Shown piece after piece: positions 39,420-63,906 of a stretch of 64,000 nucleotides of DNA. Source of the DNA: a virus. Taxonomy: Duplodnaviria; Heunggongvirae; Uroviricota; Caudoviricetes. Position 1 is the first letter of the stretch. Every line of letters begins with the position of its first letter. A model generated the notes under the pieces. That model made no database searches, was not told the DNA's origin, and saw nothing but the letters and a program-made list of their open reading frames with translations. The stretch is taken from positions 1 through 64,000 of IMG/VR virus record IMGVR_UViG_3300027749_005140; one strand, 5' to 3'. Made by a program: the position numbers and the translations under genes.

Positions 39420-39428
39420 CCGCATAAT

Positions 39429-39700: not shown

Positions 39701-39728
39701 GCTTAATAAACTTTCTCTATCTTATTTT

Positions 39729-39800
39729 GGGGCTATCGTATAATGGCTATTACACAGGGTTTGCAACTCTGATATTCCGGATCGTCCCCGGATAGCTCCA
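39729..39800 (+). tRNA. tRNA-Ala-like (anticodon TGC) with non-canonical T-loop
   Basis: Acceptor ggggcta/tagctcc (G3:U70 present), stem caggg/ctctg, loop tttgcaa, T-arm tccgg atcgtcc ccgga. Confidence 0.45.
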
Positions 39801-39977
39801 CAAAAAATAAAAAATAGATATGAAAACTAAAGAACAGTCGCTGGACGCATTTTAGTCACAGAAGAATATAAATCTTACTGTGACGGTAATAAAACAGAAA
39901 GAATTAAAAGATCATTAGTAAAAAATGGTTCACGTAATGATAGAAAATTACAAAAATATTCTGATAAATTTAACAAA

Positions 39978-42898: not shown

Positions 42899-42930
42899 AA
42901 AAAGGAGACTAATGTCTCCTTTTTTTATTT
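42899..42930. terminator. bidirectional terminator between convergent genes
   Basis: aaaaggagactaatgtctcctttttt. Confidence 0.65.
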
Positions 42931-44352
42931 CTTATATTTAAACTCTTCCATAAATTCTACCGGTACTCCAAAGTAAAACTTACTATAAGTTTTCTTAATA
43001 TTCTTATACCAATCAGATTTGTAGATAAATATCATATACTCATAAATCATATCAATTGGCATTTCAGTATTTTCATACCAATACTTTTTAAATTCATCCG
43101 TAAGATTATCTTCTATACCAGCAAGAGGAATAGTTCTTATACTTCCTGGACTAGAGTTTCTATTTGCATCATAATCTGTGTATCCATAATAATCTGTTGA
43201 TATTGATGTTGGATTACTTGTGAAGTAAAAAGACTCACCAGGATTACTGTTTATAAGATAAACAAATGAAACCTTTTTAATACTCTCGTGTCTAAAATAG
43301 AATCTCCATTCATTTCTATGTTTTATTCTTTTGTAGTTATCAATATTCTGAAATATCGATAGATCATAAGAATCTTTAATCTCATTTACATAACTTAGAA
43401 TTATAGCTAACTTCTTATCATCAATTTTACTCAGGTGATGTGAATTATTATAAGATAGTTTATCCTTTAAATTAGTAAGATTAGTTTCTTCAAAAAACAT
43501 ACTACATACTCTTTCCATAAAATGTTCTTTAGATTCATCTTTACAAGAAAGTAAAAATGATTCAGCAGGAACACTACCTAAATAAGTTTTCTTAAAAATC
43601 TTGTTATAAGGTATGATATTCTGATTAGCACCTAAGAAATCATCTAATAAAATTTCCTCGTCATTATACAACATAGTTTTACTATTAGTAATATTAGTAG
43701 TAAAATGAACAAGTATTAAATTCTGACTTACATTCTCAAAGTTACTTTTATCAATGTCTTTTATAGAAACAATATTCAAATGGTTATTTAAGAAAGTATA
43801 AAATGACTTAAATGCTTTAGTTGGGTTTTGAAAGATTGTTTTTGGTAGAATATAGAAAACATCTGCTTCTTTATTCACATTTTTAATAACATCAAGTGTT
43901 TTTACTATAAAGAATATACATTCTTCTTTTACACCATCAATACTATATAATCTTTTCAATCTATCAATCTCTGGCTTTCTATCTTTCAAAGATAATGCTG
44001 GAGTTCTATAAGGTGGATTACCAACTAATAAAATTCTATCACAATCTTCGATGAAGTCTTTATCTAAATCAAAATCATAAATATTCTGATTTATCAATTG
44101 ACAATTATCTATTGGTGTAAACTCTGAGAAAACTTCATCATCTATCTCAACTGCAACAATCTTATTTTTATAAACTTTTCTAAATGATTTGACAAAATTA
44201 CCAGAACCAAAAGATGGTTCTATAAAAACTGTTTTATCAGTAATCTCAACAGGTAGTTCTGAAATAATTTTATCAGTACCTTCTATCTTAGTATTATACT
44301 GACCGAGTATTTCTACTTTTGTATAATTATCTTTATTTGTTGCTTTTCTCAT
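42925..44352 (-). CDS. N6-adenine DNA methyltransferase (gamma-class, motif I then NPPY)
   Basis: EPSFGSGNF (motif I) followed by LLVGNPPYRT (motif IV). Confidence 0.6.
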   Translation of the reverse strand: MRKATNKDNYTKVEILGQYNTKIEGTDKIISELPVEITDKTVFIEPSFGSGNFVKSFRKVYKNKIVAVEIDDEVFSEFTPIDNCQLINQNIYDFDLDKDFIEDCDRILLVGNPPYRTPALSLKDRKPEIDRLKRLYSIDGVKEECIFFIVKTLDVIKNVNKEADVFYILPKTIFQNPTKAFKSFYTFLNNHLNIVSIKDIDKSNFENVSQNLILVHFTTNITNSKTMLYNDEEILLDDFLGANQNIIPYNKIFKKTYLGSVPAESFLLSCKDESKEHFMERVCSMFFEETNLTNLKDKLSYNNSHHLSKIDDKKLAIILSYVNEIKDSYDLSIFQNIDNYKRIKHRNEWRFYFRHESIKKVSFVYLINSNPGESFYFTSNPTSISTDYYGYTDYDANRNSSPGSIRTIPLAGIEDNLTDEFKKYWYENTEMPIDMIYEYMIFIYKSDWYKNIKKTYSKFYFGVPVEFMEEFKYKK

Positions 44353-44457: not shown

Positions 44458-44895
44458 ATGGAAGATAATGTTAGTGTAGTTTATGATATTTTTTCAGAAT
44501 CATCTTGGGAAAATATCTATCAATTTGAAAAGGATATTAGAAGAATAACTGATAAGAAATTCTTACTTGGTTTATTAATGGAGTTTGTTAGAGCAGATCT
44601 TAATTATGATGTAGATAAAGAATACATTAGTGAACTAATGCTTTCTATTGATGATAACATTGATAATCATTTTGATGCAAGTGATTATTATATTGATAGT
44701 ATACGTAAGGATGTTAGATCAATAATGAATGATTTTTTATATCAAGGAGAAGGTGATTTAAGTGAGAATGAAGAAATGATAACTTGGATTAAAAGTCTTT
44801 CAAAAGAAGAAATTGAAATACTTGAGAGCTACTATGTTAGTAGTGAAATGTATGAGACAATAGGATTTATAATGGACATACATAAAAAAAAATAA
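44458..44895 (+). CDS. hypothetical acidic protein
   Basis: ORF. Confidence 0.3.
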   Translation: MEDNVSVVYDIFSESSWENIYQFEKDIRRITDKKFLLGLLMEFVRADLNYDVDKEYISELMLSIDDNIDNHFDASDYYIDSIRKDVRSIMNDFLYQGEGDLSENEEMITWIKSLSKEEIEILESYYVSSEMYETIGFIMDIHKKK

Positions 44896-44899
44896 AAAT

Positions 44900-47065
44900 A
44901 TGAAAGATATATACCTAATATCAACAAAAACACTACAATATCCTTCAACAATTCATAGAAGTGAATCACAAAAAGAGGATATTGAGCGTGGTTGTATTAT
45001 AAAAGTTGGTGAGGCCATAGATGCAGAAGTTAGGGTTGAGACACTTGATGGAACATTTGTTTTTGAAAAACCAATAATATTGAAAGTTTGGAAAGACTCG
45101 CCTATGACCGATAAGGAAATACACATAGAACTTGAAAAAAGAGGATTTCCTAAATATAGAGAAGATAGAGATAGAGAGTTCTTTGAATGGCAAAGTCAAG
45201 AACAAGCCATCAGAGAAATAAATAATATAATCTATGGAACAAAAAAACTAAAAACATACTCTGCTAGACCAGAACAATCCGAAATGGTAGATGGTGTATG
45301 TAAACTATTTAATATACAATTAAATAGAAAAGATAAAAGAGATTTATCACGTAAATGTAAAGGTCGTGCACTTATTAACGCAAAAATGAGAGCAGGTAAA
45401 TGTCATATATCATATAGAATAATCAAAAAAATGAATTTTAAAAGAATTCTAGTTTTAACATATAAACCAAACGGTGTTGCAGAAAGCTGGGAAGATGATA
45501 TTGATCACGTTGATTTTAAAGACTTTATCTTTAAAAAAGCAATAGATTTATCAGATGTTAAATTTGAGGAAGGTGATAAAGTACAGATAATCTTCTCATC
45601 ATTCCAAGATGCACTTGGTGAAGTAAGAGATCAAGATGGTAATATTATTAAACAAAATAAAGATAAATGGAATAATATCTTTGGACAAAAAATCGACTTG
45701 ATTATCAAAGATGAGGATCATTATGGGTATGAAACTGAAAGATCAACTAACTTTTTATCTAAGTTAGATTATGATTTTGAATTGTCTCTATCAGGAACCC
45801 CATTTAAAGCAATTTTAGATGGTAAATATGAAAAAGATGAGGTTTTTACCTGGACATATTTACAAGAGCAAGTAAAAAGAAATGAAGAGAAAGAAAAAGG
45901 ATGGAACACACAGGTTTATAGAGCACTTCCAGAATTTGAGGTATTTTTATGTAAATATGATAATGATATTATTAAAAAATTTTTAAAATATTATACAGAG
46001 GAGGAAAAAGTAACTAACTTTAAATTATTCTCAAATGAGAGAATTGTGTATGATTTTTTAACTTGGATTAAAATGGACCCAAGTATGAATAATCTTATTA
46101 CAAACCATATGTTTTGGTACTTACCACAAGTTATAAACTGTGATACTATTGAAAGTATTATTAAAATACATCCATATTGGAAAGATTATAGTATAATAAA
46201 CGCATCTGGTAATAGTGTTAGAGATTTAGAAGATACTAAAAATAATATTTTTAATAAAAAAGCAAATTCTATAACACTCTCTTGTGGAAGATGGAATACA
46301 GGTTCAACAGTTCCACAATGGAATTCTGTTTGGATGTTAGATGATGGATACTCTGCAGAAAATTGGTTTCAGACAGGTATGAGATCAGGTAGTCCTTTTA
46401 TTAGTAGAGAAGGAGAGGTTTTAAAAGAGAAAGTACATATCGTCGATTTTAATTCTGATAGAATGTTGAAATGTTATATTGAATACTCAACAGTTATATC
46501 TAAATATACTGGTTATGAAGCATCGGAATTTAGCACCGAAATGCTAAAGTGTATGCCCATTTTCAGTGTTGATGGAGCAACTATCAATAAAATTGACAGT
46601 GATGATCTACTTGAGCACTTTAATAGATTTTTAACCGATTCATTTGGTTCACTATCTCTTTTAGATAGAGATAAATTTGACAGTGATATAAAAGATATAC
46701 TTGAGGATATAAATGGAAATTTATCAAAGGAAGAATTATTATCAATGAATAAATCATCAAAAGGTAGAGGTAAAGATAATCAAAGAACAAAAGTTAGTGA
46801 AGGTGTCAAAGGTGAAGTTGAAAAAATTGAAGATTATGTTATAAAAGCAAGGTTGATTACTAATAGATTTAAAAACTTCCTATTTGTGATTGATAAGATT
46901 TCAAACATAGATGATATTTTTAAATATAAAGAAGAGTTTAAAACTCAAACAGGAGTTGAAGCAGAAAAATTCAAAATACTTTTAGATAAAGGATTCATTT
47001 TGAAAGAGAAAATAAATGATAGTATTGATTTATTCAATATTAACAACGAATACTTATATAACTAA
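44900..47065 (+). CDS. SF2 (SNF2/ResIII-like) helicase-family protein
   Basis: Motif Ia KPNGVAESW, motif II DLIIKDEDH (DExH), motif III LSGTPF, motif VI-like FQTGMRSGSP; Walker A degenerate (RAGKCH). Confidence 0.45.
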   Translation: MKDIYLISTKTLQYPSTIHRSESQKEDIERGCIIKVGEAIDAEVRVETLDGTFVFEKPIILKVWKDSPMTDKEIHIELEKRGFPKYREDRDREFFEWQSQEQAIREINNIIYGTKKLKTYSARPEQSEMVDGVCKLFNIQLNRKDKRDLSRKCKGRALINAKMRAGKCHISYRIIKKMNFKRILVLTYKPNGVAESWEDDIDHVDFKDFIFKKAIDLSDVKFEEGDKVQIIFSSFQDALGEVRDQDGNIIKQNKDKWNNIFGQKIDLIIKDEDHYGYETERSTNFLSKLDYDFELSLSGTPFKAILDGKYEKDEVFTWTYLQEQVKRNEEKEKGWNTQVYRALPEFEVFLCKYDNDIIKKFLKYYTEEEKVTNFKLFSNERIVYDFLTWIKMDPSMNNLITNHMFWYLPQVINCDTIESIIKIHPYWKDYSIINASGNSVRDLEDTKNNIFNKKANSITLSCGRWNTGSTVPQWNSVWMLDDGYSAENWFQTGMRSGSPFISREGEVLKEKVHIVDFNSDRMLKCYIEYSTVISKYTGYEASEFSTEMLKCMPIFSVDGATINKIDSDDLLEHFNRFLTDSFGSLSLLDRDKFDSDIKDILEDINGNLSKEELLSMNKSSKGRGKDNQRTKVSEGVKGEVEKIEDYVIKARLITNRFKNFLFVIDKISNIDDIFKYKEEFKTQTGVEAEKFKILLDKGFILKEKINDSIDLFNINNEYLYN

Positions 47066-48421
47066 ATGATAACAAAGGAACAACAATTAAGAATTGATAT
47101 ACTTTTTAAACAGATTTCTAATTTAGAAAGCTCTGATTCTTCTACAATGACAGAATTATCTGTTTGTAGAGATTTAATATCTCAAAAATTTGATTTTAAT
47201 TTATCGTATATGGATATATGTTGTGGTAAAGGAACAATTTTACTTTGTCTATATCTTGAATATTGGAAAAAATTAGATATACCTGATATTGAGGAAAAGA
47301 ATAAATATATCATTGATAGAATATGTGGAGTGGATATCTCAAAATCTCAAGTAGATATTACAAAAAGTACACTTAAAAAGATACAAAAAATACTGAAAAT
47401 ACACAACATTTTAGTGCCTTTTGTATATAATTATAACATACTTGACTGTGATAAAAAAGAAATAAATGACTTGAAAAGAAAATTTGATGTCGTAATAACA
47501 AATCCTCCATATAATTCGGAAAGAGGTGATAACAATCAATCTGTGGATATTTATCCAGATTTTGTAGATAAAGCATTTGAGTTGGCTGATAGATATGTAA
47601 TAATGATTACAAAATCTAATTGGATGAATAAACCATCTATGAAAGATTTTAGAGAGAAAATGATTAACAAATACAATGTTGATAAAATTGTTCATTATCC
47701 TGAAAATCCTTTTAAGGGAACACTAATATCAGGTGGTGTTTCATATTTTGTTATTGATAACAAAAACACAAAAGAAACATTTGAATTAAATGGTGTTGTT
47801 TATGATAGGAAAGTTGCCTTAGATTTTTTACCTTATGAACTTAATAAAGATGAATTATCAGTTCTAAGTAAACTACTAAAAATAGATAAAATAAACATGG
47901 ATAATTTTAGAACTCAAGGATATTATACTATAAAAACAAATGACAACAGACTAATAAGTGATAACTCTGATGAAGTTGTTGAGTGTCATGTATCAGAACA
48001 AAAGGGTAAAATAAAATATTTCCCAAGAGTATTATTCAATACTAAGATTAGTAATGATTTACTAAATCCTAAAATATTTACAACATCTGCATATGGCTCA
48101 AACCCATTTTCATTAGGTAGAATACTAAAATCTGATGGAAACCAGATATGTAGTGAAAGTTTAGTATCATGGTCATTTAATACTGTTAATGATAGAGATA
48201 TTTTTCATGATTATATGAATACTAAACTTTTCAGAGTTGCTGTTTCCTTTATAAAAAACAAAAAACATGTTAGTAAAAATACATTTTCTCTAATTCCACA
48301 AATTGATTTCTCAAAATTAGAGAAAATAGATGATGAAAATATTTACAAATACTTAAACTTAACAGAAGAAGATATTCAAACTATTGAAGAAAGATGTGAT
48401 AGACTAAAATTACTTAGGTAA
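47066..48421 (+). CDS. N6-adenine DNA methyltransferase (gamma-class)
   Basis: CCGKGTILLCL (motif I) and VITNPPYNSE (motif IV); C-terminal ~300 aa putative target-recognition domain. Confidence 0.6.
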   Translation: MITKEQQLRIDILFKQISNLESSDSSTMTELSVCRDLISQKFDFNLSYMDICCGKGTILLCLYLEYWKKLDIPDIEEKNKYIIDRICGVDISKSQVDITKSTLKKIQKILKIHNILVPFVYNYNILDCDKKEINDLKRKFDVVITNPPYNSERGDNNQSVDIYPDFVDKAFELADRYVIMITKSNWMNKPSMKDFREKMINKYNVDKIVHYPENPFKGTLISGGVSYFVIDNKNTKETFELNGVVYDRKVALDFLPYELNKDELSVLSKLLKIDKINMDNFRTQGYYTIKTNDNRLISDNSDEVVECHVSEQKGKIKYFPRVLFNTKISNDLLNPKIFTTSAYGSNPFSLGRILKSDGNQICSESLVSWSFNTVNDRDIFHDYMNTKLFRVAVSFIKNKKHVSKNTFSLIPQIDFSKLEKIDDENIYKYLNLTEEDIQTIEERCDRLKLLR

Positions 48422-48442
48422 TTATAAAAATAATAAGAAAAT

Positions 48443-48847
48443 GTGTCAAAAATTAAAGGAATTGAGAAAATCAAAGATGAAATAAATAAACTTACTAAAT
48501 ATAGAAAAGAACATGCCGACACATTTGGTGAAGTATTTACAGAGTTCTATCTTATAGAAGAACACGTATCTAATATTGATAGTAAATTATTTGAAGATCC
48601 TAACTCAACATTTCTTGATCCATGTTCCGGATTTGGTTCATATTCTATTATTTTAATAGAAAGACTGATGGAAGGACTTAAAGATTGGGAACCAAATATT
48701 GAAAAAAGATATAAACATATACTTGAAAACCAAATATTTATGGTAGAGATACAAAAAGAATCTTGTGAGGTAATTGAAAGATTATTTAATCCAAAAGGTA
48801 AATATAAATTAAATTTATATAACCAATCATTTTTGAACTTTGAATAA
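48443..48847 (+). pseudogene. truncated N6A-methyltransferase N-terminal fragment (motif I only)
   Basis: GEVFTE...FLDPCSGFGSY matches the N-terminus/motif I of TaqI/Eco57I-like MTases, but no NPPY follows before the stop. Confidence 0.35.
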
Positions 48848-48861
48848 TTTAAAATTATTTG

Positions 48862-48869
48862 TACCTTTG
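48862..48869 (+). promoter_or_regulatory. -7 promoter box TAnnTTTG
   Basis: tacctttg 16 nt upstream of the ATG at 48885. Confidence 0.4.
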
Positions 48870-48884
48870 ATAAAAATTAAAATT

Positions 48885-49193
48885 ATGTTTAAGAATAGTG
48901 ATAACTTATTTGTTGGTAAGTATTTTGGAGAAAATGTAAATGGTTTCATAAAAGGTAATACTTATACCTTCCGTGCACTAATGTATAATAAAGGTGTATC
49001 TATAAATACATCACCTGGTAGATCACATAAAATAATGGAGTTTGATAGTATGAGAGACCTATTACTCACTTTCAAGATAACTGATATACCAAATTATGTC
49101 ACAGATGATGTTGCTCTAGAATATGATAGAGGACTCGATCTATTAAAATCGGATTATAGAGAATATCAAATAAATCGTATTCTAAATATTTAA
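48885..49193 (+). CDS. hypothetical protein (start revised)
   Basis: First Met after the promoter box. Confidence 0.3.
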   Translation: MFKNSDNLFVGKYFGENVNGFIKGNTYTFRALMYNKGVSINTSPGRSHKIMEFDSMRDLLLTFKITDIPNYVTDDVALEYDRGLDLLKSDYREYQINRILNI

Positions 49194-49214
49194 GGAAACA
49201 TAAATCAATATGTA

Positions 49215-49658: not shown

Positions 49659-50387
49659 ATGAAGAAGATATATACATATGAAGAAATGCTAAAATCCATT
49701 AAAAATAGTAAAAGAATATTTGAACAAGCCATGACACCTGAAAAAATATCAAAACTTAAAAGATTAAAGGATGCGGGTGATGTTAAAGGTGTATTAAAAG
49801 AATTACAAATAGATATTGATGATATTTGTAAAAAAGTTAAAGAATTAGAATGGAATGATATTAATTATTCATATAAAAATGATATTATAACCATATTATA
49901 TATAAATAATATAATGACATCATTATCCATACTAAAAGGAAAGATTAAAGAATATTCAAGTGATGAAATTGATGAAAGAATATTTGGTGGTGATTGGAAA
50001 GAGTTATTTTTAGAAATTGAATTAGATAAAGATATGTTAAATAGAATAGATATTATGAATGGTCTTCCCCTTTTTATGAAAGGTTTAGGACTTGGTAAAA
50101 AAATCTACAAAAAATTAATATGTGATTTTGGGTATATATCATCATATAATGGTTATGAACCAAGTTTAGATAGTTCAATGGTTTGGGAATCACTTGTACA
50201 AGATACAGAATTATTTACCTTTTCAAATGATGAAAATCTAATAAGTTTTTGGAATGAATTGGAATATGAAACTATTATCGAAAAATTAAAATTGTTCTGT
50301 AAACATAAAGGGAATATCCAATTTGATGATGATTTCCTAAATAAATATAATTTAAGTGAAACAAGTTTAAAAACACTATTAGAATAA
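49659..50387 (+). CDS. hypothetical protein
   Basis: ORF followed by a terminator. Confidence 0.3.
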   Translation: MKKIYTYEEMLKSIKNSKRIFEQAMTPEKISKLKRLKDAGDVKGVLKELQIDIDDICKKVKELEWNDINYSYKNDIITILYINNIMTSLSILKGKIKEYSSDEIDERIFGGDWKELFLEIELDKDMLNRIDIMNGLPLFMKGLGLGKKIYKKLICDFGYISSYNGYEPSLDSSMVWESLVQDTELFTFSNDENLISFWNELEYETIIEKLKLFCKHKGNIQFDDDFLNKYNLSETSLKTLLE

Positions 50388-50416
50388 ACCTCAAATTAAA
50401 TTTTGAGGTTTTTCTT
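50388..50416 (+). terminator. rho-independent terminator
   Basis: aacctcaaa ttaaa ttttgaggtt + tttctttttt. Confidence 0.7.
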
Positions 50417-50436: not shown

Positions 50437-50444
50437 TATATTTG
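50437..50444 (+). promoter_or_regulatory. -7 promoter box TAnnTTTG
   Basis: tatatttg 22 nt upstream of the ATG at 50467. Confidence 0.45.
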
Positions 50445-50466
50445 TACTCTAATATAAAAACAACAT

Positions 50467-51696
50467 ATGCAATCTGAAATTAAATATTCCAGTAAGTTCA
50501 CAAACTTATTAAGACTTATCGACCACCGTGTCGCAAAAATACTTTTAGACATTGAAAATAAAAGTTTTATAGTTACTCAAAACTATATTGATATTACCGA
50601 CAAAAAAGATACCGTATCTTTTACTCCTGATAGAAAAGTTGCTGAAATAAAAGCAAGTATACCTCAATTGTGGAAAACTACTGAAGATACAAAACATCTT
50701 ACACACGGTTCTGCAAATGATAAAATCTACGAAGATTTAGGATATGAAAAACCTAATAGAGATCCTTGGTCACCAGAGTACGGTACTTTAGGAACTATTT
50801 TAGGCGAAGCCAAGTCACGTACTACTGATAAGGTATATGTTATCTTTCAAAAATATGAAGGAGAATATAAAGTTGTCGTAAACAAAGCTACTTTGATACC
50901 AACAACTAACTTCAATAAAATCTGGTCTTCTAATAGAAACTCTATTAGAATTGGTAGATTGACAAGATCTCTTTTATCTTCTGTTGGTGCAATATTTACT
51001 GAGAAAGATATTGAAGAATTTACTAATAAGTTTAAGGCAGCTTATGACTTTAATAAAGATACTACCAATAAATTTGATATAGTATCTGGTGAAGACATTG
51101 CAAAATGGTATCACTTTGAGAAATATACCAAAGGTGGTGGAACACTTAACAATTCTTGTATGGCTAATGTAAAATCAGATTTCTTTGAGATTTATGTTAA
51201 AAATCCACAAGTTAAATTAGTTATTCTTTATGATGATGCTGGTAAAATTGAAGATGGCAAATATACTTCTGATAAAATCAAAGGTAGAGCCATTCTATGG
51301 AATGATGCTAAATGTGTTGGTGTAGAAGGTAATATAAACTTTATGGATAGAATTTATACAAGTAATGACTCTGATACTGATTTGTTTAAAACTTTTGCAG
51401 AGTCTAAAAACTTTTGGTATAAAAAATCACAAAGTATGGATTTTGATTGCCATATCTGTAATGGAGTTATCGAACAAAAAGCGACTATCACAGTTAAGTT
51501 AGATGAAACTAACTTTGCTTTTTACCCTTATACCGATACAATGTCTTTTGCTAATTTAGATGATAATACATTGATGAACTTCAGTGATGAATTTGATAGA
51601 AGACTTAGAGGTACAAATGGTGGATATGAAGGTTCGGACGAACACTATTATGATCCACAAGATTATGATGAAGATGAATATAATGATGAAGATTAA
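50467..51696 (+). CDS. hypothetical protein, paralog family A (acidic C-terminus)
   Basis: Paralog of 5146..6333 (shared motifs listed there). Confidence 0.4.
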   Translation: MQSEIKYSSKFTNLLRLIDHRVAKILLDIENKSFIVTQNYIDITDKKDTVSFTPDRKVAEIKASIPQLWKTTEDTKHLTHGSANDKIYEDLGYEKPNRDPWSPEYGTLGTILGEAKSRTTDKVYVIFQKYEGEYKVVVNKATLIPTTNFNKIWSSNRNSIRIGRLTRSLLSSVGAIFTEKDIEEFTNKFKAAYDFNKDTTNKFDIVSGEDIAKWYHFEKYTKGGGTLNNSCMANVKSDFFEIYVKNPQVKLVILYDDAGKIEDGKYTSDKIKGRAILWNDAKCVGVEGNINFMDRIYTSNDSDTDLFKTFAESKNFWYKKSQSMDFDCHICNGVIEQKATITVKLDETNFAFYPYTDTMSFANLDDNTLMNFSDEFDRRLRGTNGGYEGSDEHYYDPQDYDEDEYNDED

Positions 51697-51701
51697 AAAT
51701 T

Positions 51702-52655
51702 ATGAAAGTAACACAACATATAGACGCAGCCAAGAAACCATTGTTTTCCTTTGAAATTTTACCACCTTTAAAAGGACAAAACATACAATCTATATTTGAT
51801 GGTATTGATCCACTAATGGAGTTCGATCCACCATTTATTGATGTAACTTATCATCGTGAAGAATATGAGTATAAAGAATTACCTAATGGGTTATTTCAAA
51901 AGAAAGTTGTAAAGAAACGTCCTGGCACAGTTGGTATTTGTTCTGCTATTCAAAACAAGTATAATATTGATGCTATTCCACATGTTCTTTGTGGTGGATT
52001 TACTAAAGAAGATACTGAGAATCTATTGATTGACTTAGATTTCTTAGGAATTGATAATGTAGTAGCACTTCGTGGTGATTCTTTAATTACAGAAACATAT
52101 TTTAGTGCGGAAAAGGATGGAAATAATTATGCATCCGAATTAGTTACCCAAATTAGTAATCTGAATAAAGGAATCTATTTAGATGAAAGTTTAAAAAATG
52201 TTGCCAAGACAAATTTTTGTATTGGTGTGGCAGGTTACCCAGAGAAACACATGGAAGCTCCTAGTTTAGATAGTGACATTCACTTTTTGAAAGAGAAAAT
52301 AAAAAATGGAGCAGAGTATATTATTACTCAGATGTTTTTTGATAATAAGAAGTTCTTTGAGTTTGTTGATAAATGTAGAGCGGCAGGAATCACAGTCCCA
52401 ATTATTCCAGGATTAAAACCAATTTCAACTAAGAGACAACTTAATCTAATCTCACATAGATTTAGTATTGATTTTCCAGATGATTTGATTATGGCAGTAG
52501 TTAAAGCTCCCGATAATAATGCAGTAAAACAAATTGGTATTGAATGGTGTACTGAACAAAGCAAGGAATTAGTTAAAGTAGGTATTCCACTTTTACATTA
52601 TTATTCGATGGGGAAAGCAGAAAATATTAAAGCTATTGCAAAAGAAATTTTCTAA
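51702..52655 (+). CDS. metF: 5,10-methylenetetrahydrofolate reductase
   Basis: Colinear with MetF: FSFEILPP, IDVTYH, IPHVLCGG, VVALRGD, VAGYPEKH, IITQMFFD, IPIIPGLKPIS, HYYSMGKAE. Confidence 0.8.
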   Translation: MKVTQHIDAAKKPLFSFEILPPLKGQNIQSIFDGIDPLMEFDPPFIDVTYHREEYEYKELPNGLFQKKVVKKRPGTVGICSAIQNKYNIDAIPHVLCGGFTKEDTENLLIDLDFLGIDNVVALRGDSLITETYFSAEKDGNNYASELVTQISNLNKGIYLDESLKNVAKTNFCIGVAGYPEKHMEAPSLDSDIHFLKEKIKNGAEYIITQMFFDNKKFFEFVDKCRAAGITVPIIPGLKPISTKRQLNLISHRFSIDFPDDLIMAVVKAPDNNAVKQIGIEWCTEQSKELVKVGIPLLHYYSMGKAENIKAIAKEIF

Positions 52656-52656
52656 A

Positions 52657-52682
52657 AAATCCTCCAATCGGAGGATTTTTCA
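52657..52682 (+). terminator. rho-independent terminator
   Basis: aatcctcc aatc ggaggatt + tttt. Confidence 0.65.
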
Positions 52683-52690
52683 TATCTTTG
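52683..52690 (+). promoter_or_regulatory. -7 promoter box TAnnTTTG (probable leaderless transcript)
   Basis: tatctttg only 4 nt upstream of the ATG at 52695. Confidence 0.4.
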
Positions 52691-52694
52691 TACT

Positions 52695-53078
52695 ATGAAA
52701 ATTAAACTACAAGACGTTAAAGAAGATATTGAAGATATAATCGATGGTGTTCTCGTAGAACTAATTGATGATGATTTTGAGATTAGAAAAGTCTTTGTAG
52801 ACTCTAAAAATTATCCATACAGTAATGGTAGACATCTTATAGATGTTTACATAAACAAAGAAAATAATAAAGGATTTAAGATAAGTGAAATACAATCAAA
52901 AGTTTTAACACTTAATGACTTTATGAGACGTAGATATGATGCAACTGTTAGTTACCAAACAATGGATAGTAAAAGTAAAAGACAACTTCATGGAACTTTT
53001 CCACTTTTCAAATATAATCAAATAAGAAAATTTAAAATAATTATAACCTTTTTAGAGGAAACTACTAACATTCGATAA
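52695..53078 (+). CDS. hypothetical protein
   Basis: ORF. Confidence 0.3.
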   Translation: MKIKLQDVKEDIEDIIDGVLVELIDDDFEIRKVFVDSKNYPYSNGRHLIDVYINKENNKGFKISEIQSKVLTLNDFMRRRYDATVSYQTMDSKSKRQLHGTFPLFKYNQIRKFKIIITFLEETTNIR

Positions 53079-53128: not shown

Positions 53129-54124
53129 ATGATAATCAAATCAGAAATAAATCCGAAAGACTTTGAGGTCGGTACAATCATTGGCCGTTTCCAAGTAAAC
53201 AAACTACACGATGGTCACAGATCATTAATCAACTACGTATTAGATAACCATAAAAAAGTAATCATACTTTTAGGTGTATCAAGAGTTCAAAATACTCGCA
53301 AAAATCCACTAGACTTTGCTTCTCGTAAAGCAATGATTCAAGCAGAGTTTCCTTCTGTTATGATACTACCAATTCAAGATCAAAGATATAACGAAAAATG
53401 GTCTCAACAAGTTGATTCTATTATCCCAATTCCTTTCGGTGAGAAAAAAACAGTAATCTACGGAAGTAGAGACTCTTTCATTCCTTACTACTCTGGTAAA
53501 TTTCCAGTTATCGAATTAGAAGAAAGTGTTACTTATAATGGTACAAACATCCGTGAAGAAGTTGCAAAAGAAACATTAGACTCTGACGACTTTAGAGCAG
53601 GTGTTATTTACTCTTCTTTTAATCATAGACCTACAACCTTCCCAACAGTTGATATTATTGCACACGATAATGAAGGTAATATCCTTTTAGGTAGAAAACC
53701 TAATGAGAAATTATTTAGATTTGTTGGTGGTTTTGTTGATACTTCAGATAGTTCATTTGAAGCAGCAGCTTTAAGAGAACTTAATGAAGAAACTGGTGGG
53801 AACTTAGTAGTAAATAAAGAATTAAAATATATTACTTCTCAAAAAGTAAATGATTGGAGATATAAAGGTGAAGACTCTGGTATTATGACTACATTATATT
53901 TGGCAACAAGACACTTTGGATTTGCTAAAGCTTCTGACGACATAGCCGAAGTAAAATGGATACCTGCTAATAAATTTAGTAACTATGATGGTATCAGAAC
54001 TGGAATTGTTCCGGAACACAGAGAGTTGATGAAAACATTTATTGATAAAGTTTATGATCAAAATCTTATGCCAATTGCAGAAAGATTAGAAGAAAGAACT
54101 AATGTAACTTACACCATTGAGTAA
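53129..54124 (+). CDS. nadM: bifunctional NMN adenylyltransferase / Nudix hydrolase (NadM-Nudix)
   Basis: N-terminal GRFQVNKLHDGH (nucleotidyltransferase H-x-G-H) plus C-terminal Nudix box GGFVDTSDSSFEAAALRELNEETG. Confidence 0.8.
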   Translation: MIIKSEINPKDFEVGTIIGRFQVNKLHDGHRSLINYVLDNHKKVIILLGVSRVQNTRKNPLDFASRKAMIQAEFPSVMILPIQDQRYNEKWSQQVDSIIPIPFGEKKTVIYGSRDSFIPYYSGKFPVIELEESVTYNGTNIREEVAKETLDSDDFRAGVIYSSFNHRPTTFPTVDIIAHDNEGNILLGRKPNEKLFRFVGGFVDTSDSSFEAAALRELNEETGGNLVVNKELKYITSQKVNDWRYKGEDSGIMTTLYLATRHFGFAKASDDIAEVKWIPANKFSNYDGIRTGIVPEHRELMKTFIDKVYDQNLMPIAERLEERTNVTYTIE

Positions 54125-54464: not shown

Positions 54465-56057
54465 ATGAGTTTACAAAGACAAATTACTCGAAAATTAGAA
54501 AGAGTCATTGCTGATAAAGATTGGACTTCTTTAGAAGGTATTCAAAAATACCTAACAAAAATTATTACAAAACCAGACAATTTAATTCTTTGTTCTGATG
54601 CTTACAAATACTCACACCATAAATTCTATGGTGATGAAATGACTAAGATGATTTCTTATATGGAATCTCGTGGTGGTAAATTCTCAGAAACTTTATTCTA
54701 TGGTTTACAAATCATTATCAAACAATACTTAGAAGGTATCGCTATTACCAAAGAAGAAGTAGATGAAGCAAATGATTACTTAGCTTCTAAACTAGGTGTG
54801 TTCGGTAGAGAAGATGTATTTGATCGTTCTAAGTTTGATTATATCGTTGATAAATATGATGGTAAACTTCCTATCAGTATTAAAGCTGTACCAGAAGGAA
54901 CCGTTGTAAATACAAAAAATGTACTTTTCATTATTGAAAGTTTAGATGAAAAATGTGCTTGGTTGACAAACTTCTTAGAAAGTATCTTACTTCAAGTTTG
55001 GTATCCAATTACTGTTGCAACCCTTTCAAGAGAAGTTAGAAAAATTGTAACTAATTCATTTTTAGATTGTACTTCTTATGATGATAAAACAATCAATTTC
55101 TTAGTTGATTTTGTTTTAAATGATTTTGGTTTCAGAGGTGTATCATCTGTACAATCAGCTAAAATTGGTGGGTCCGCACATCTTGTCAACTTCTTAGGTT
55201 CAGACACTGTAATCGCTTCTAAATTGATTAGAGACGTATATAATACTGAACGAATCTATGGGTTATCAATTCCTGCAACCGAACACTCTATTATGACGCT
55301 TAAAGGTAAAGAAGGAGAGTTAGAACTAATGACGAGAGTGTTAAAAACATTCCCTACTGGATTAGTAGCGTGTGTATCTGATTCATATAACATCTTTAGA
55401 GCTTGTTCTCAATACTGGGGAACTGAGTTGAGAGATTTAGTTCTTTCAAGACCTGCAACACCTGGAAATCAATTAGTTATTAGACCTGACTCTGGCCACG
55501 TTTTAAGAACATTGAAAGAGATTTTTGATATATTATTTGACAAGTTTGGATATACGGTAAATGAAAAAGGTTACAAAGTACTTCCACCACAAGTTAGAGT
55601 AATTCAAGGTGACGGTGTCAACCTAGAATCAATTGGTGAAATCTATACAATGTTAAAATCAGAAGGTATTTCTCCAGAGAACTTAGCATTGGGTATGGGT
55701 GGTAAATTATTACAAGCGGATATAAACCGTGATACAAATAACTTTGCAACTAAAGCTTGTTTCGCAGTGGTTGATGGTCAAGAAAGAAATGTAGTTAAAT
55801 CTCCTACAGAAATGGATGCAGATGGTAACATTATGAAATCTTTCAAAAAATCTAAACAAGGTCGTTTGAAACTTGTTAAGAATGATGATGGTACTTACAG
55901 AACTGTTACTTCAATGGATGCAGACTTTGATACTGTTAAAGACGAGTTAGTTGAAGTATTTAGAATGGGAGAAATTACTAAAGAGTGGAACTTTGATGAG
56001 ATTAGACAAAGAGCTGCAGTTTTAGTAGAACAAGAAACAGAAGAATTGATAGCATAA
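54465..56057 (+). CDS. nadV: nicotinamide phosphoribosyltransferase
   Basis: LCSDAYKYSHHKFYG and GMGGKLLQ..NRDT motifs, ~530 aa. Confidence 0.85.
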   Translation: MSLQRQITRKLERVIADKDWTSLEGIQKYLTKIITKPDNLILCSDAYKYSHHKFYGDEMTKMISYMESRGGKFSETLFYGLQIIIKQYLEGIAITKEEVDEANDYLASKLGVFGREDVFDRSKFDYIVDKYDGKLPISIKAVPEGTVVNTKNVLFIIESLDEKCAWLTNFLESILLQVWYPITVATLSREVRKIVTNSFLDCTSYDDKTINFLVDFVLNDFGFRGVSSVQSAKIGGSAHLVNFLGSDTVIASKLIRDVYNTERIYGLSIPATEHSIMTLKGKEGELELMTRVLKTFPTGLVACVSDSYNIFRACSQYWGTELRDLVLSRPATPGNQLVIRPDSGHVLRTLKEIFDILFDKFGYTVNEKGYKVLPPQVRVIQGDGVNLESIGEIYTMLKSEGISPENLALGMGGKLLQADINRDTNNFATKACFAVVDGQERNVVKSPTEMDADGNIMKSFKKSKQGRLKLVKNDDGTYRTVTSMDADFDTVKDELVEVFRMGEITKEWNFDEIRQRAAVLVEQETEELIA

Positions 56058-61492: not shown

Positions 61493-61565
61493 GGCTCTAT
61501 GATGTAATGGATTAGCATATAAATCTTCTAAATTTATCGTATAGGTTCGAATCCTATTAGAGTCA
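61493..61565 (+). tRNA. tRNA-Arg (anticodon TCT)
   Basis: Acceptor ggctcta/tagagtc, D-stem atgt/gcat, stem taaat/attta, loop cttctaa, T-arm atagg ttcgaat cctat. Confidence 0.6.
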
Positions 61566-61571
61566 CAAAAA

Positions 61572-61645
61572 GTCTGGGTGGTGAAACTGGAAAACACAAC
61601 AAGTTTAAGCCTTGTAAGCTGCGGGTTCGACTCCCGTCCCAGATA
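61572..61645 (+). tRNA. tRNA-Leu-like (anticodon TAA) with class-I architecture (short variable loop)
   Basis: Acceptor gtctggg/cccagat, stem acaag/cttgt, loop tttaagc, T-arm gcggg ttcgact cccgt. Confidence 0.45.
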
Positions 61646-61651
61646 CAAATT

Positions 61652-61733
61652 GCAGAGGTGATGTAATGTAACCATGCTGGTCTAAGAAGCCAGTGTCCGA
61701 AAGGACGTGCGGGTTCGAGTCCCGCTCTCGGTA
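61652..61733 (+). tRNA. tRNA-Leu (anticodon AAG by hand fold), class II
   Basis: Acceptor gcagagg/tctcggt (one mismatch), stem ctggt/gccag, loop ctaagaa, variable arm gtcc gaaa ggac. Confidence 0.45.
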
Positions 61734-61735
61734 CA

Positions 61736-62002
61736 ATGAAAGAAATAGATTATATACAGTACACATCATATACATTATTATCAAGTGGTAATGTATTTAA
61801 GGTAAATTCAGTTATGCCTTTACAAAGTTTAGACAAACACTTGAATGAAAGTACAAACTTAATTATGTTTGTAGTTCATAATATAAAGTGTAATGATAAA
61901 GAAGTAATGGTTTATAATAGAGATCTATTTAGATTTACATATGGATCAAAAGAATGTCCTGAAATGATTATGAAAATGAAACATTCACATATATTAGAAT
62001 AA
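61736..62002 (+). CDS. hypothetical protein embedded in tRNA array 3
   Basis: 88-aa ORF between tRNA genes. Confidence 0.3.
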   Translation: MKEIDYIQYTSYTLLSSGNVFKVNSVMPLQSLDKHLNESTNLIMFVVHNIKCNDKEVMVYNRDLFRFTYGSKECPEMIMKMKHSHILE

Positions 62003-62004
62003 TG

Positions 62005-62086
62005 TCGGAGTGATGAAATGGTAGACGTGCTAGCCTCAAAAGTTAGTGTCCAAGTGACGTGTGGGTTCGACTCCCACCTTCGATAC
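62005..62086 (+). tRNA. tRNA-Leu (anticodon CAA), class II
   Basis: Acceptor gtcggag/cttcgat, stem ctagc/gttag, loop ctcaaaa, variable arm gtcc aagt gac. Confidence 0.6.
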
Positions 62087-62095
62087 AAAAATATG

Positions 62096-62178
62096 CAGGT
62101 ATGGGGGAATGGTAGACCCGCTGGCCTTAGAAGTCAGTGCTGAAATATGCGTGTCGGTTCGAGTCCGACTACCTGTAC
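62096..62178 (+). tRNA. tRNA-Leu (anticodon TAG), class II
   Basis: Acceptor gcaggta/tacctgt, stem ctggc/gtcag, loop cttagaa. Confidence 0.6.
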
Positions 62179-62220
62179 AAAATAATACTAATAAAATTAG
62201 GTAGATTAAAAAACTAATAG

Positions 62221-62228
62221 TATATTTG
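62221..62228 (+). promoter_or_regulatory. -7 promoter box TAnnTTTG of leader/tRNA module 4
   Basis: tatatttg followed by perfect hairpin ctctgta ataa tacagag (62231-62248). Confidence 0.5.
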
Positions 62229-62314
62229 TACTCTGTAATAATACAGAGAGTGTTTTACACTACTATAAATAAAGATAAACAAAAAGGGACAATAAAAATT
62301 TAATATATAATATA

Positions 62315-62404
62315 ATGAAAACAAATACTGTAAATATTAATGTGATTACGATTACGAATTGTGTGAATAACACGACTTCGGGTAAGCGATTATGTATAGT
62401 ATAA
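62315..62404 (+). CDS. leader peptide 4 (29 aa), Asn/Thr/Val/Ile/Cys-rich
   Basis: MKTNTVNINVITITNCVNNTTSGKRLCIV; AAT/AAC, ACN, GTA/GTG, ATT, TGT codons match the downstream Asn, Thr, Val, Ile, Cys tRNAs. Confidence 0.45.
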   Translation: MKTNTVNINVITITNCVNNTTSGKRLCIV

Positions 62405-62430
62405 ACTCATATATTATATACAATTTATAA

Positions 62431-62466
62431 AGACCCGAACTCAAAAAGTTTGGGTCTTTTCTTTTA
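62431..62466 (+). terminator. rho-independent terminator/attenuator 4
   Basis: aagacccgaac tcaaaa agtttgggtctt + ttcttttat. Confidence 0.7.
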
Positions 62467-62471
62467 TATAT

Positions 62472-62542
62472 TCTTCTATAGTGAAATGGTATCACGTCTG
62501 ACTGTTAATCAGTTATTCCAGGTTCGAGCCCTGGTGGAAGAG
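62472..62542 (+). tRNA. tRNA-Asn (anticodon GTT)
   Basis: Acceptor tcttcta/tggaaga, D-stem gtga/tcac, loop ctgttaa, T-arm ccagg ttcgagc cctgg. Confidence 0.6.
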
Positions 62543-62551
62543 CAAAAAAAT

Positions 62552-62639
62552 TACTGGGTTGCCATAGCCAGGTCGAATGGTTCGGACTGTTAATCCGATG
62601 AGCATCGCTCCACCGTGGGTTCGAATCCCACCCCAGTAG
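62552..62639 (+). tRNA. tRNA-like, anticodon GTT, with class-II-length variable hairpin (atypical)
   Basis: Perfect acceptor tactggg/cccagta, stem tcgga/tccga, loop ctgttaa, variable hairpin gagc atc gctc, T-arm gtggg ttcgaat cccac. Confidence 0.35.
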
Positions 62640-62647
62640 CAATACAT

Positions 62648-62728
62648 TGGCACATACCAGCCCAACCTGATAAGTTGGAGAACTGTAGCGGTACGTTGAA
62701 AACGTGGGTTCGAATCCCTCTGTGCCAA
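62648..62728 (+). tRNA. tRNA-Ile-like (anticodon GAT) with atypical architecture
   Basis: Acceptor tggcaca/tgtgcca, anticodon arm ccaac ctgataa gttgg (loop identical to bacterial tRNA-Ile); D region too short and 26 nt between anticodon and T arms. Confidence 0.35.
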
Positions 62729-62735
62729 CAAAAAT

Positions 62736-62810
62736 AGTCCTATAGCTCAGTTGGTTCAGAGCGATTGTTTAACACACAATAGGTCGTCGGTTCGAATCCG
62801 TCTAGGACTA
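62736..62810 (+). tRNA. tRNA-Val (anticodon AAC by hand fold)
   Basis: Perfect acceptor agtccta/taggact, D-arm tagctcagttggttcagagc, stem attgt/acaat, loop ttaacac. Confidence 0.5.
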
Positions 62811-62847
62811 CTGAAAGTTGTTTTGTGAAACAAAACACTACAAAATC

Positions 62848-62919
62848 AGTTCCTTAGCTCAGCGGGAGAGCGGTTGTTTTACATGCAACAGGTCGTGGGT
62901 TCGATCCCCACAGGAACTA
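62848..62919 (+). tRNA. tRNA-Val (anticodon TAC)
   Basis: Perfect acceptor agttcct/aggaact, stem gttgt/gcaac, loop tttacat, T-arm gtggg ttcgatc cccac. Confidence 0.6.
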
Positions 62920-62924
62920 CAAAA

Positions 62925-62998
62925 ATACCTTGGTCGGTATATCAATTGGTTTAGATTATCACGCTGATACCGTGAAGGTTGCGAGTTCGAGTCTCGCA
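62925..62998 (+). other. degenerate tRNA-like element (T-arm only)
   Basis: gcgag ttcgagt ctcgc T-arm and cggtat/ataccg pairing, but no anticodon arm or acceptor 3' strand. Confidence 0.25.
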
Positions 62999-63007
62999 CA
63001 AAAATAT

Positions 63008-63095
63008 GGCATAGTGTCTGAGTGGTCGAAAGATGCGGTCTGCAAAACCGTAATGATTAAGTTCATCATCGTAGGTTCAAATCCTACCTATGCTT
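63008..63095 (+). tRNA. tRNA-Cys (anticodon GCA) with expanded variable hairpin
   Basis: Acceptor ggcatag/ctatgct, stem gcggt/accgt, loop ctgcaaa, variable atga ttaagt tcat, T-arm gtagg ttcaaat cctac. Confidence 0.5.
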
Positions 63096-63102
63096 CAATA
63101 AT

Positions 63103-63176
63103 GGCGCGGTGGCCGAGTGGCACGTAGGCGGTGGATTGCAAACTCACACACACTGGTTCGATCCCAGTTCGCGCCT
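63103..63176 (+). tRNA. tRNA-like, anticodon GCA (second Cys-like, irregular D-arm)
   Basis: Acceptor ggcgcgg/tcgcgcc, loop ttgcaaa, T-arm actgg ttcgatc ccagt. Confidence 0.4.
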
Positions 63177-63183
63177 CAAAAAT

Positions 63184-63256
63184 GCCGATATAGCTCAATA
63201 GGTAGAGTGCCAACTTGGTAGGTTGGAGGTTAAGGGTTCGATTCCCTTTATCGGAT
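63184..63256 (+). tRNA. tRNA-Thr (anticodon GGT)
   Basis: Acceptor gccgata/tatcgga (1:72 mismatch), stem ccaac/gttgg, loop ttggtag, T-arm aaggg ttcgatt ccctt. Confidence 0.55.
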
Positions 63257-63265
63257 CAATAAAAT

Positions 63266-63346
63266 GCTAGTGTGGCCCAGTGGCGACGGCACTTCCCTTG
63301 TAAGGAAGAAATAAAAACACCGCAGGTTCGAGTCCTGTCACTAGCT
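63266..63346 (+). tRNA. tRNA-Thr (anticodon TGT) with 13-nt A-rich variable region
   Basis: Perfect acceptor gctagtg/cactagc, stem cttcc/ggaag, loop cttgtaa, T-arm gcagg ttcgagt cctgt. Confidence 0.55.
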
Positions 63347-63351
63347 CAACA

Positions 63352-63400: not shown

Positions 63401-63408
63401 TATCTTTG
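63401..63408 (+). promoter_or_regulatory. -7 promoter box TAnnTTTG
   Basis: tatctttg 24 nt upstream of the ATG at 63433. Confidence 0.4.
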
Positions 63409-63432
63409 TATAGAATAATAAATACTACTATT

Positions 63433-63906
63433 ATGAAAGATATAAAACCTCGTTGCTTCGTGGATATGGATGGCGTCCTATGTGATTTTTTCGGAGCATT
63501 CAAAGATGTTCGTCAGAAAGATCCAAACTTTAAATATCCTCAATCCAGAATAGGGTTCTTCAAAAATCTTGAACCAATGCCAAACGCAATCGAATCTTTT
63601 AATAAATTAAAAGAACATTATGACGTTTGGATTTTAACACGTCCTTCATTTAAAAACATTAGTTGTTTTAACGAGAAAGCCGAGTGGGTTTTAGAACATT
63701 TAGGTTTTGACGTATTAGAAAAAACGATTATGTGTGGTGATAAATCTTTATTGAAAGGTGACTTCCTTATTGACGACAATGGTCAGAATGGACAACCTGA
63801 GTTTGAAGGTGAGTGGATACAATTCGGAACTAAACCTTTTGAAAATTGGCAAGATGTCATAAATTATCTATTAAAATCAGATTCCCATATAGATACAACA
63901 TTATAA
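63433..63906 (+). CDS. HAD-family 5'(3')-deoxyribonucleotidase-like protein
   Basis: CFVDMDGVLCDF (HAD motif I, D-x-D-G-V-L), typical of NT5C-like nucleotidases; start revised to the Met after the promoter box. Confidence 0.6.
   Translation: MKDIKPRCFVDMDGVLCDFFGAFKDVRQKDPNFKYPQSRIGFFKNLEPMPNAIESFNKLKEHYDVWILTRPSFKNISCFNEKAEWVLEHLGFDVLEKTIMCGDKSLLKGDFLIDDNGQNGQPEFEGEWIQFGTKPFENWQDVINYLLKSDSHIDTTL

Follow-up and report, generated by a model that had tools for sequence, protein, structure and literature searches.

An apparently intact metF gene in a large tRNA-rich Flavobacterium phage, and its probable history of operon capture and deletion

Introduction

The DNA analysed here, 64,000 nucleotides of the IMG/VR virus record IMGVR_UViG_3300027749_005140 (hereafter the window), contains a gene for a methylenetetrahydrofolate reductase (MTHFR, the product of metF) among the genes of a phage. 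This enzyme commits one-carbon units to 5-methyl-tetrahydrofolate (5-methyl-THF), whose sole common use in bacteria is the synthesis of methionine by MetH or MetE. Phages attack or exploit S-adenosylmethionine (SAM); SAM lyases and DNA methyltransferases are examples. The question raised by the locus is how a phage came to carry metF without a methionine synthase gene beside it, and what it may gain from the enzyme.

The G+C content of the window ranges from 25 to 38%, and A+T makes up about 71% of the phage genome. The window contains 29 tRNA genes in three arrays, and matches to the PHROG families were found for a tail-spike/virion-structural protein, an NAD-dependent ligase, a tyrosyl-tRNA synthetase and NadV. 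The remaining genes are mostly ORFans.

Results and discussion

Identity and integrity of the encoded protein

The metF ORF extends from ATG to TAA exactly over positions 51702..52655 (+ strand) and encodes a protein of 317 amino acids, which we assign as an FAD-dependent 5,10-methylenetetrahydrofolate reductase consisting of the catalytic domain only. Residues 3-315 match positions 2-285 of the 287 positions of the Pfam profile PF02219 (MTHFR) with E=3.4e-66 and a score of 223.9 bits (cutoff 24). The NCBIfam equivalog TIGR00676 (methylenetetrahydrofolate reductase [NAD(P)H]) was matched with 306.3 bits, above its cutoff of 293.7. A phmmer search of the PDB returned 16 matches, every one an MTHFR; the protein is colinear with solved enzymes from bacteria, fungi and human, and the best match was Thermus thermophilus 1v93, with which residues 1-310 align colinearly (E=1.4e-39). 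The AlphaFold model, built on 25 homologues (pLDDT 86, pTM 0.85), is predicted to contain the (beta/alpha)8 barrel of the solved MTHFRs; in Foldseek it aligned to 1v93 with TM scores of 0.80/0.87, and the top 50 PDB matches listed, 3fst among them, were all MTHFRs. Judging from these alignments, the family similarity is far beyond chance. The preliminary description of the window had proposed MetF on the basis of colinear similarity over the whole length, and the Pfam, TIGR00676, PDB phmmer and structure-model results all agree with that proposal.

A eukaryote-type MTHFR was considered and rejected. The phage protein ends with the barrel and does not have the C-terminal SAM-binding regulatory domain of about 300 amino acids; its alignment to 6fcx, 8qa4 and 8uy1 is confined to their N-terminal halves, and its score against TIGR00677 (186 bits) is under the cutoff of 310.

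Four residues are essential in E. coli MetF, namely Glu28, Asp120, Gln183 and Phe223 (PMC11868366). In the alignment with the E. coli protein, the first three correspond to E18, D126 and Q210 of the window protein, and Phe223 is aligned to Ile250 in a helix where the alignment is uncertain. Isoleucine occupies this position in every aligned Flavobacterium orthologue, and leucine does so in two other viral copies; Ile250 is thus probably a trait of the lineage, and not a phage-specific defect or a sign of decay. The F223L variant of E. coli MetF is catalytically competent.

The preliminary description had also called for a check of the FAD-binding residues. We take the FAD contacts of the E. 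coli structure papers to be Thr59, Tyr60, His88, Arg118, Tyr152, His156, Asp165 and Lys172; the residues aligned to them in the window protein (T49, Y50, H94, R124, Y179, H183, D192 and K199) are all conserved. The neighbouring Arg171 of E. coli is replaced by Glu198, a position at which the aligned bacterial orthologues have Glu or Gln. From its residues, the phage enzyme looks intact.

Origin from a Flavobacterium methionine operon

The nearest cellular proteins are the MetF proteins of Flavobacterium, with 85-88% amino acid identity. Identity drops with taxonomic distance, from at most 88% in Flavobacterium to 74-79% in Tenacibaculum and Winogradskyella, and the best 80 species-representative matches belong nearly all to Flavobacteriaceae or unclassified Bacteroidota. 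Three of these 80 come from MAG contigs of short to medium length, whose labels, as given, are Sphingobacterium, Nitrotoga and Alteromonas. When 123 MetF sequences were placed in a neighbour-joining tree, the ten from phages formed a monophyletic group; the tree does not fix their placement within Flavobacterium, and the derivation from this genus, a point on which the preliminary description had proposed a phylogeny, follows from the best bacterial matches.

The bacterial metF loci share a constant arrangement. In 79 of the 80, metH lies directly upstream on the same strand, and the one exception has just 153 nt of upstream sequence. The methionine synthase is split into metH-N, encoding the homocysteine-binding domain, and metH-C, encoding the pterin-binding, B12-binding and activation domains. 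Of the bacterial loci, 14 were tested for a SAM-I riboswitch, and all 14 have one ahead of the metH-metF operon. Where metK lies in the vicinity, it often has a SAM-II riboswitch. Relatives of the window phage that carry the whole set encode MetH-N and MetH-C proteins 92% and 89% identical, respectively, to those of the bacterial operon that gives 88% for MetF, and these parallel identities to one operon fit a capture of the three genes as one block.

A near-identical donor was sought among the sampled bacterial metF genes and none was found. The phage metF genes have at most 81% nucleotide identity to the bacterial copies, with dS of at least 1.35 and dN of 0.07-0.13; this high dS means that either the transfer was not recent or the donor is unsampled. 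Codon amelioration was considered as a clock, and the comparison of the phage metF (GC3 0.19, equal to that of the neighbouring phage genes) with one bacterial copy (0.39) at first looked convincing. However, low-GC Flavobacterium metF genes have GC3 values of 0.16-0.27, and because the phage value lies inside this range, amelioration is unusable as evidence for long residence in phages.

One slot with four states

The genes immediately around metF place it in an existing phage unit. This unit is bounded upstream by a terminator-like hairpin (50386..50411, + strand; a 10-pair stem followed by a T run) that closes the preceding gene. The promoter-like motif TATATTTGTACT (50437..50448, +), whose promoter function is putative, follows, 19 nt before the start codon of hyp409 (50467..51696, +), which encodes a 409-aa phage protein; the cargo is inserted downstream of this gene. 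The metF stop is immediately followed by an intrinsic-terminator-like hairpin of 11 pairs, AAAAATCCTCCAATCGGAGGATTTTT (52655..52680, +), and then by a second copy of the promoter-like motif, TATCTTTGTACT (52683..52694, +), immediately before a gene for a 127-aa protein (52695-53078). For the motif TAnnTTTGTACT, 8 occurrences were counted in the window where 0.51 would be expected; none of 100 shuffles reached this number. The motif resembles the Bacteroidetes -7 promoter element, TAnnTTTG. A scan of the window for sigma-70 promoters revealed no enrichment (43 found, 43.4 expected). The motif before hyp409 and the terminator after metF predict a bicistronic hyp409-metF unit under phage control, in which the two genes are probably co-transcribed.

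The hyp409 protein matched no Pfam and no PHROG family, and the neighbouring hypothetical proteins likewise had no PHROG match at E<=0.001. Homologues are found in many large viral contigs, and a paralogue is present in the window at 5146-6333. A phmmer search of the PDB with hyp409 gave matches of about 22 bits (E about 4e-4) to many near-identical SARS-CoV-2 RBD chains, which were regarded as spurious.

Among phages at least 92% identical to the window phage, the slot between the hyp409 stop codon and the terminator was found in four states: empty, occupied by an unrelated small gene, occupied by metH-N, metH-C and metF, or occupied by metF alone, as in the window. In the sister phages, whose MetF is 95-98% identical to that of the window, the order is the 409-aa gene, metH-N (329 aa), metH-C (886 aa), metF, the 127-aa gene and a Nudix gene. 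In equally close relatives (L019/L047 and L046) the slot is empty, and the TAA of hyp409 is followed by the hairpin terminator and then by the 127-aa gene; the hairpin directly after the hyp409 stop is the same as AAAAATCCTCCAATCGGAGGATTTTT (comparison with L019 and L046). In L049, which is related somewhat less closely, this place is taken by a small, unrelated gene for a signal-peptide protein. There is no bacterial non-coding DNA around the phage cargo, and a search for the SAM-I riboswitch in the window and in two sister cassette loci found none.

The junction itself points to how the metF-only state arose. In the sister phages, the 10-nt sequence AGATTAAAAA occurs twice, at the end of hyp409 and at the end of metH-C, the two copies lying 3,658 bp apart and flanking metH-N and metH-C. 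The window has a single copy (51690..51699, +), which includes the hyp409 stop codon and is followed by the same 5-nt spacer as in the sisters and then by the metF ATG. The blastn segments of three sister contigs (L015, L012 and L017) overlap on precisely these ten positions of the window. The MetF of the window is closest to those of L015 and L017 (98%), followed by L012 (96%). Since all three carry metH, parsimony favours a loss of metH in the lineage of the window. That the metF-only state is a deletion derivative, formed by the loss of 3,658 bp between the 10-nt repeats, is thus largely shown by the sequences at the junction. No MetH is encoded elsewhere in the 64-kb window; linkage to methionine synthase belongs to the genomic context of metF and does not define the enzyme. 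Extension beyond the window ends, with a view to metH, metK and thymidylate synthase, added 2.5 kb at one end and no sequence at the other.

Near-identical phages with an empty slot, the full cassette or metF alone form an unusually clean natural experiment. With this allelic series it becomes testable at which step the methyl cycle restricts the production of phage in Flavobacterium, and whether escape from riboswitch feedback is the reason why the genes are carried.

Selection on metF after the loss of metH

It may be asked whether metF has any function of its own after the deletion. The complete metH-metF cassette could have been the selected unit, with metF spared by chance as a passenger that is intact because the deletion is recent. 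In favour of such a neutral leftover, the metF-only state is derived, the window branch has only seven substitutions (four synonymous and three non-synonymous) and a one-codon deletion (Gly12), and full-cassette alleles are found in more contigs (at least 24 for the allele P0005) than the metF-only allele (5). We nevertheless consider it unlikely. The ORF is intact and the catalytic residues are conserved; dN/dS is 0.05-0.12 between phage copies and 0.10-0.12 against the nearest sisters; two of the three amino acid changes on the window branch return to the bacterial residue; and the metF-only allele is unchanged in five samples. Some relaxation of selection since the loss of metH may have occurred, the changes on the window branch being too few to speak against it. 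The differences between the window and L015 cluster in the first 270 nt or so of metF, where the window is closer to L012, which suggests recombination among co-circulating variants.

The passenger reading is also opposed by an independent and older phage clade that keeps metF alone. Its first member was recognized on a 344-kb contig (L040), where the genes surrounding the solo metF have no Pfam matches. The clade comprises about 20 clusters, 71-97% identical to the L040 protein and just 62-64% identical to the nearest bacterial MetF. Two more members (L178 and L179) lie on contigs of 164 and 76 kb with dense small ORFans and no MetH within 10 kb, and in one clade member contig a tail-fibre-like gene is located 4 kb from metF. 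In L179, a possible methyltransferase gene, with no more than weak and faint Pfam matches, overlaps the metF stop. On two 89-kb contigs (L002/L003), a gene for an N6/N4 DNA methylase lies directly upstream of a solo metF, with a clear N6_N4 match in L002. As far as sequence comparison can tell, solo MetF is kept independently in other large phages, in an older and separate clade, and two viral solo metF genes adjoin methyltransferase genes, the one on L179 being weakly matched.

Proposed history and role

The account that we favour, and hold to be probable as a whole, combines an intact host-derived MetF, capture of an operon, a deletion and a supply of 5-methyl-THF independent of SAM. Its historical part is for the most part shown by the sequences compared above. 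A phage ancestor copied the metH-N, metH-C and metF coding sequences of a Flavobacterium without the SAM-I riboswitch leader, and these landed in the accessory slot that lies after the hyp409 stop codon and ahead of the terminator. In the window lineage, the 3,658-bp deletion between the AGATTAAAAA repeats then took both metH genes, and metF stayed behind with its 5-nt spacer. Transcribed with hyp409 from a phage promoter, metF should be expressed whatever the level of SAM or the state of host transcription. With NAD(P)H and FAD, the enzyme would reduce 5,10-methylene-THF to 5-methyl-THF; host MetH (phage MetH in the sisters) would use this product to remethylate homocysteine to methionine; and host MetK would convert methionine into SAM for the phage methyltransferases, methionine being also available for phage protein synthesis. 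The most likely role of phage MetF would thus be SAM-independent production of 5-methyl-THF feeding host MetH.

Candidate consumers of SAM are present. The preliminary description had spoken of several SAM-dependent methyltransferases in the window, and three SAM-type genes were indeed found with Pfam: an FkbM-type methyltransferase (37414-38118), an RrnaAD-like methyltransferase (42925-44352, - strand) and an Eco57I/N6-adenine-type DNA methyltransferase (47066..48421, +), the last accompanied by a ResIII helicase (44900-47065). The met-carrying relatives that were examined have this helicase/methyltransferase module and two empty-site contigs lack it, in a comparison of very few lineages; the L015/L045 contig gave a partial module match only, at the contig end. 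The pattern is suggestive of a functional link between the module and the met genes, within these very few lineages. The earlier proposal of a role in methionine or SAM supply gains weight from the sister phages, in which methionine synthase genes immediately precede the same metF; the physiological role itself is one that we infer.

A wider reading is possible, and we put it forward tentatively. Large Bacteroidota phages may repeatedly capture MetF, sometimes with MetH, free of the riboswitch, thereby keeping SAM regeneration going past the riboswitch or the shut-off of host transcription, mainly for phage DNA methylation and maybe for anti-restriction. MetF alone would then be the minimal sufficient module, as it would control the flux into 5-methyl-THF and the pre-existing host MetH protein would persist. 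If true, regulation-bypassing genes of the SAM cycle would be a class of auxiliary metabolic genes (AMGs) not described before.

One-carbon flow in the opposite direction must also be weighed against the proposed methionine supply. The phage enzyme might oxidize 5-methyl-THF to 5,10-methylene-THF for the synthesis of dTMP or purines, or manipulate the folate pool in some other way, and a phage genome of about 71% A+T would have a high demand for dTMP. A reverse-acting type of MTHFR does exist: in the type 4 enzyme of Sphingobium (S6MTHFR), a Leu-Pro motif in loop beta2-alpha3 and a Pro-Phe motif in loop beta8-alpha11 are said to block the binding of NADH (PMC11868366). The phage protein shares with it the superfamily and the catalytic Glu, Asp and Gln. 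It differs in that both motifs are missing, Leu48-Pro49 and Pro268-Phe269 being replaced by His51-Arg52 and Ser302-Met303, and in that it has no association, within the window, with THF-dependent demethylases; no demethylase generating 5-methyl-THF was seen there. Moreover, the orthologous host metF belongs to a methionine operon controlled by a SAM riboswitch, and in the sister phages metF is paired with methionine synthase. We regard the reverse direction as very improbable.

Two NAD-salvage genes adjoin metF, one Nudix/NMNAT-like (53129-54124) and one for NadV (54465-56057), both recognized with Pfam/PHROG. The preliminary description had connected metF with them through the dependence of MetF on NAD(P)H. 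Their adjacency is real, but the functional link was not supported: the pair is kept in the empty-slot relatives, as it is in numerous less closely related viral contigs that have no MetF, and the slot holds other cargo elsewhere. The adjacency reflects an insertion hot spot, and the locus cautions against inferring functional coupling from the proximity of AMGs.

Phage origin and rarity of the gene

The setting of metF is reproducible. The identical MetF protein was found on five contigs from five samples, and its phage neighbours were the same in each case. Over 7-14 kb that cover both sides of metF, the window shares 99.7-99.98% identity with three assemblies made independently from other samples (L004, L005 and L006), and a 105.6-kb IMG/VR contig (IMGVR_UViG_3300027969_004220) is colinear with the window, including the tRNA arrays, and has the phage flanks of metF in common with it. 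Such shared junctions and phage flanks make contamination or chimerism very unlikely. The genomic marks of an AMG, i.e. a host-type gene with phage genes on both sides, on one molecule and reproducibly so, were found. The metF gene is carried by a real, large, tRNA-rich Flavobacterium phage.

That metF is instead bacterial DNA mis-assembled onto a phage, or that the contig itself is bacterial, might be argued from the identity of up to 88% to Flavobacterium MetF and from the many public 'phage' MetF matches that are bacterial contamination, but this is effectively refuted, and retains practically no probability, in view of the recurrent junctions and flanks just described, of insert ends that match the ORF ends to the base with no bacterial flanking DNA or riboswitch, and of a best nucleotide identity of only 81% to any sampled bacterial metF.

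The preliminary description had called metF an unusual AMG for a phage, and the searches bear this out. A megablast search with 15 kb around metF against the INPHARED phages gave no match. In tblastn, MetF had 13 matches in the same collection, all at 50% identity or less and none in a credible cultured phage; the matching records were unannotated gut fragments, Salmonella WGS contigs or MAG-like records. PHROG scans of MetF, MetH-N and MetH-C retrieved no family even at E<=0.1. Pattern scans of IMG/VR (2.9 million contigs) recovered at least 5 MetF loci, a lower bound since the scans were pattern-limited. In the literature on phage metF and metH, only entries in bulk AMG tables were found. 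The supply side of the methyl cycle on phages (MTHFR with or without B12-dependent methionine synthase) lies outside PHROG and, beyond bulk AMG lists, was not found in the searchable literature.

Comparison with known systems

The enzyme family and host-derived AMGs are already known; what this locus adds is its natural series of alleles and a metF that has lost its control by the riboswitch. The phage protein and MetF of Flavobacterium are homologous over their full length (up to 88% amino acid identity). Both contain two insertions, specific to this lineage, that E. coli MetF does not have, and they agree in the catalytic Glu, Asp and Gln as well as in the Ile aligned to E. coli Phe223. The phage protein differs in being one residue shorter through the deletion of Gly12, and its gene differs in being detached from metH, in having no SAM-I riboswitch leader, and in its place downstream of a phage gene, in a unit with a promoter-like motif and a terminator of the phage.

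The slot resembles those of phage morons and other accessory genes in that a single precise site holds varying cargo among close relatives. Classical morons, however, have their own promoter and terminator, whereas the met cargo brings neither and sits upstream of the resident terminator in an existing unit. Finally, metF shares with the phage NadV and Nudix/NMNAT-like pair the features of a host-type enzyme among phage genes, under purifying selection and variable among close relatives; but NadV has a well-populated PHROG family (phrog_448), whereas MetF and MetH have none.

Variable sites around the metF gene

When the window metF is compared with its closest sister, the copy on phage contig L015, the differences are concentrated in the first approximately 270 nt of the gene (51702-51970), and within this segment the window gene is more similar to that of the sister contig L012, although L012 is more distant overall. 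The pattern suggests that recombination took place near the deletion junction.

The site occupied by metF, between the stop codon of the upstream 409-aa gene (hyp409) and the terminator, can host unrelated cargo. In the more distant relative L049, whose hyp409 is 72% identical to that of the window, the same interval (L049 4280-4790) contains a small gene unrelated to the met cargo, with a signal-peptide-like N-terminus (MKKLLLGLVLLFSMLGFSQ...). The hyp409 family, which is without known domains, is common across large viral contigs, and a paralogue is present in the window itself at 5146-6333 (+), with 33% identity over about 340 aa.

A second variable region adjoins the met slot. This is a block of about 4.7 kb (44460-49209), composed of three small ORFs, one of them of 145 aa, together with genes for a ResIII helicase and an N6 methyltransferase of Eco57I type, which is missing from the close relative L019/L046 (where the met slot is empty) and is represented at the equivalent position of L012 by a different helicase/methyltransferase pair.

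Promoter-like motif, tRNA arrays and translation genes

The motif TAnnTTTGTACT occurs eight times in the window (at 1170, 29468, 38421, 50437, 52683, 61246, 61850 on the minus strand, and 62221) vs 0.51 copies expected, and a count of eight was reached in none of 100 shuffles. The window phage probably uses this motif as a promoter of the Bacteroidetes type.

Three arrays (29717-31679, 38299-39801 and 61493-63347) contain the 29 tRNA genes predicted by ARAGORN. The Rfam set of tRNAs is different, in that some of the ARAGORN calls are absent and additional tRNA-like matches appear at 31778-31861, 62648-62728 and 62938-62997. Within the first array lies an ORF of 345 aa (30196-31233, +) whose product has domains resembling endonucleases (MTES_1575, DUF559, RAP); the 3' end of this ORF overlaps tRNA-Phe (31210-31282).

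Host-like genes related to translation are also clustered in the window, namely those for an L7/L12-like protein (784-1236), SmpB (24129-24560, E=9e-51), YqeY (26838-27242) and tyrosyl-tRNA synthetase (27242-28498). Neither ARAGORN nor Rfam reported a tmRNA gene in the window.

Other host-like genes

Tetrapyrrole synthesis begins with glutamyl-tRNA reductase (HemA), whose gene is unusual for a phage; a complete copy is found at 6526-7707 (-), with the domains GlutR_N, Shikimate_DH and GlutR_dimer (E=2e-39). Further host-like genes encode a dephospho-CoA kinase (136-783), a 632-aa SPFH/Band 7 protein (2423-4321), a sigma-70-like factor (21204-21806), a thioredoxin (23250-23570) and an NT5C 5'-nucleotidase (63406-63906). 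A protein resembling the SPFH/Band 7 one is also encoded on L002, a viral contig bearing another solo metF.

Comparison with other MetF loci

Solo MetF genes on phage-like contigs of 76-344 kb (L040 5995-6945, L178 10001-10951 and L179 10001-10957) form a clade of their own. Identity to bacterial MetF is only 62-64% in this clade, against 71-97% between its members and the L040 copy. The metF stop codon of L179 is overlapped by the next gene, whose matches to methyltransferases are weak.

At the bacterial locus L009, metK and the metH-metF operon are divergent and each is preceded by its own class of SAM riboswitch, SAM-II before metK (5907-5966, -) and SAM-I before metH-metF (6122-6226, +), a layout that is seen again in several Flavobacterium genomes.
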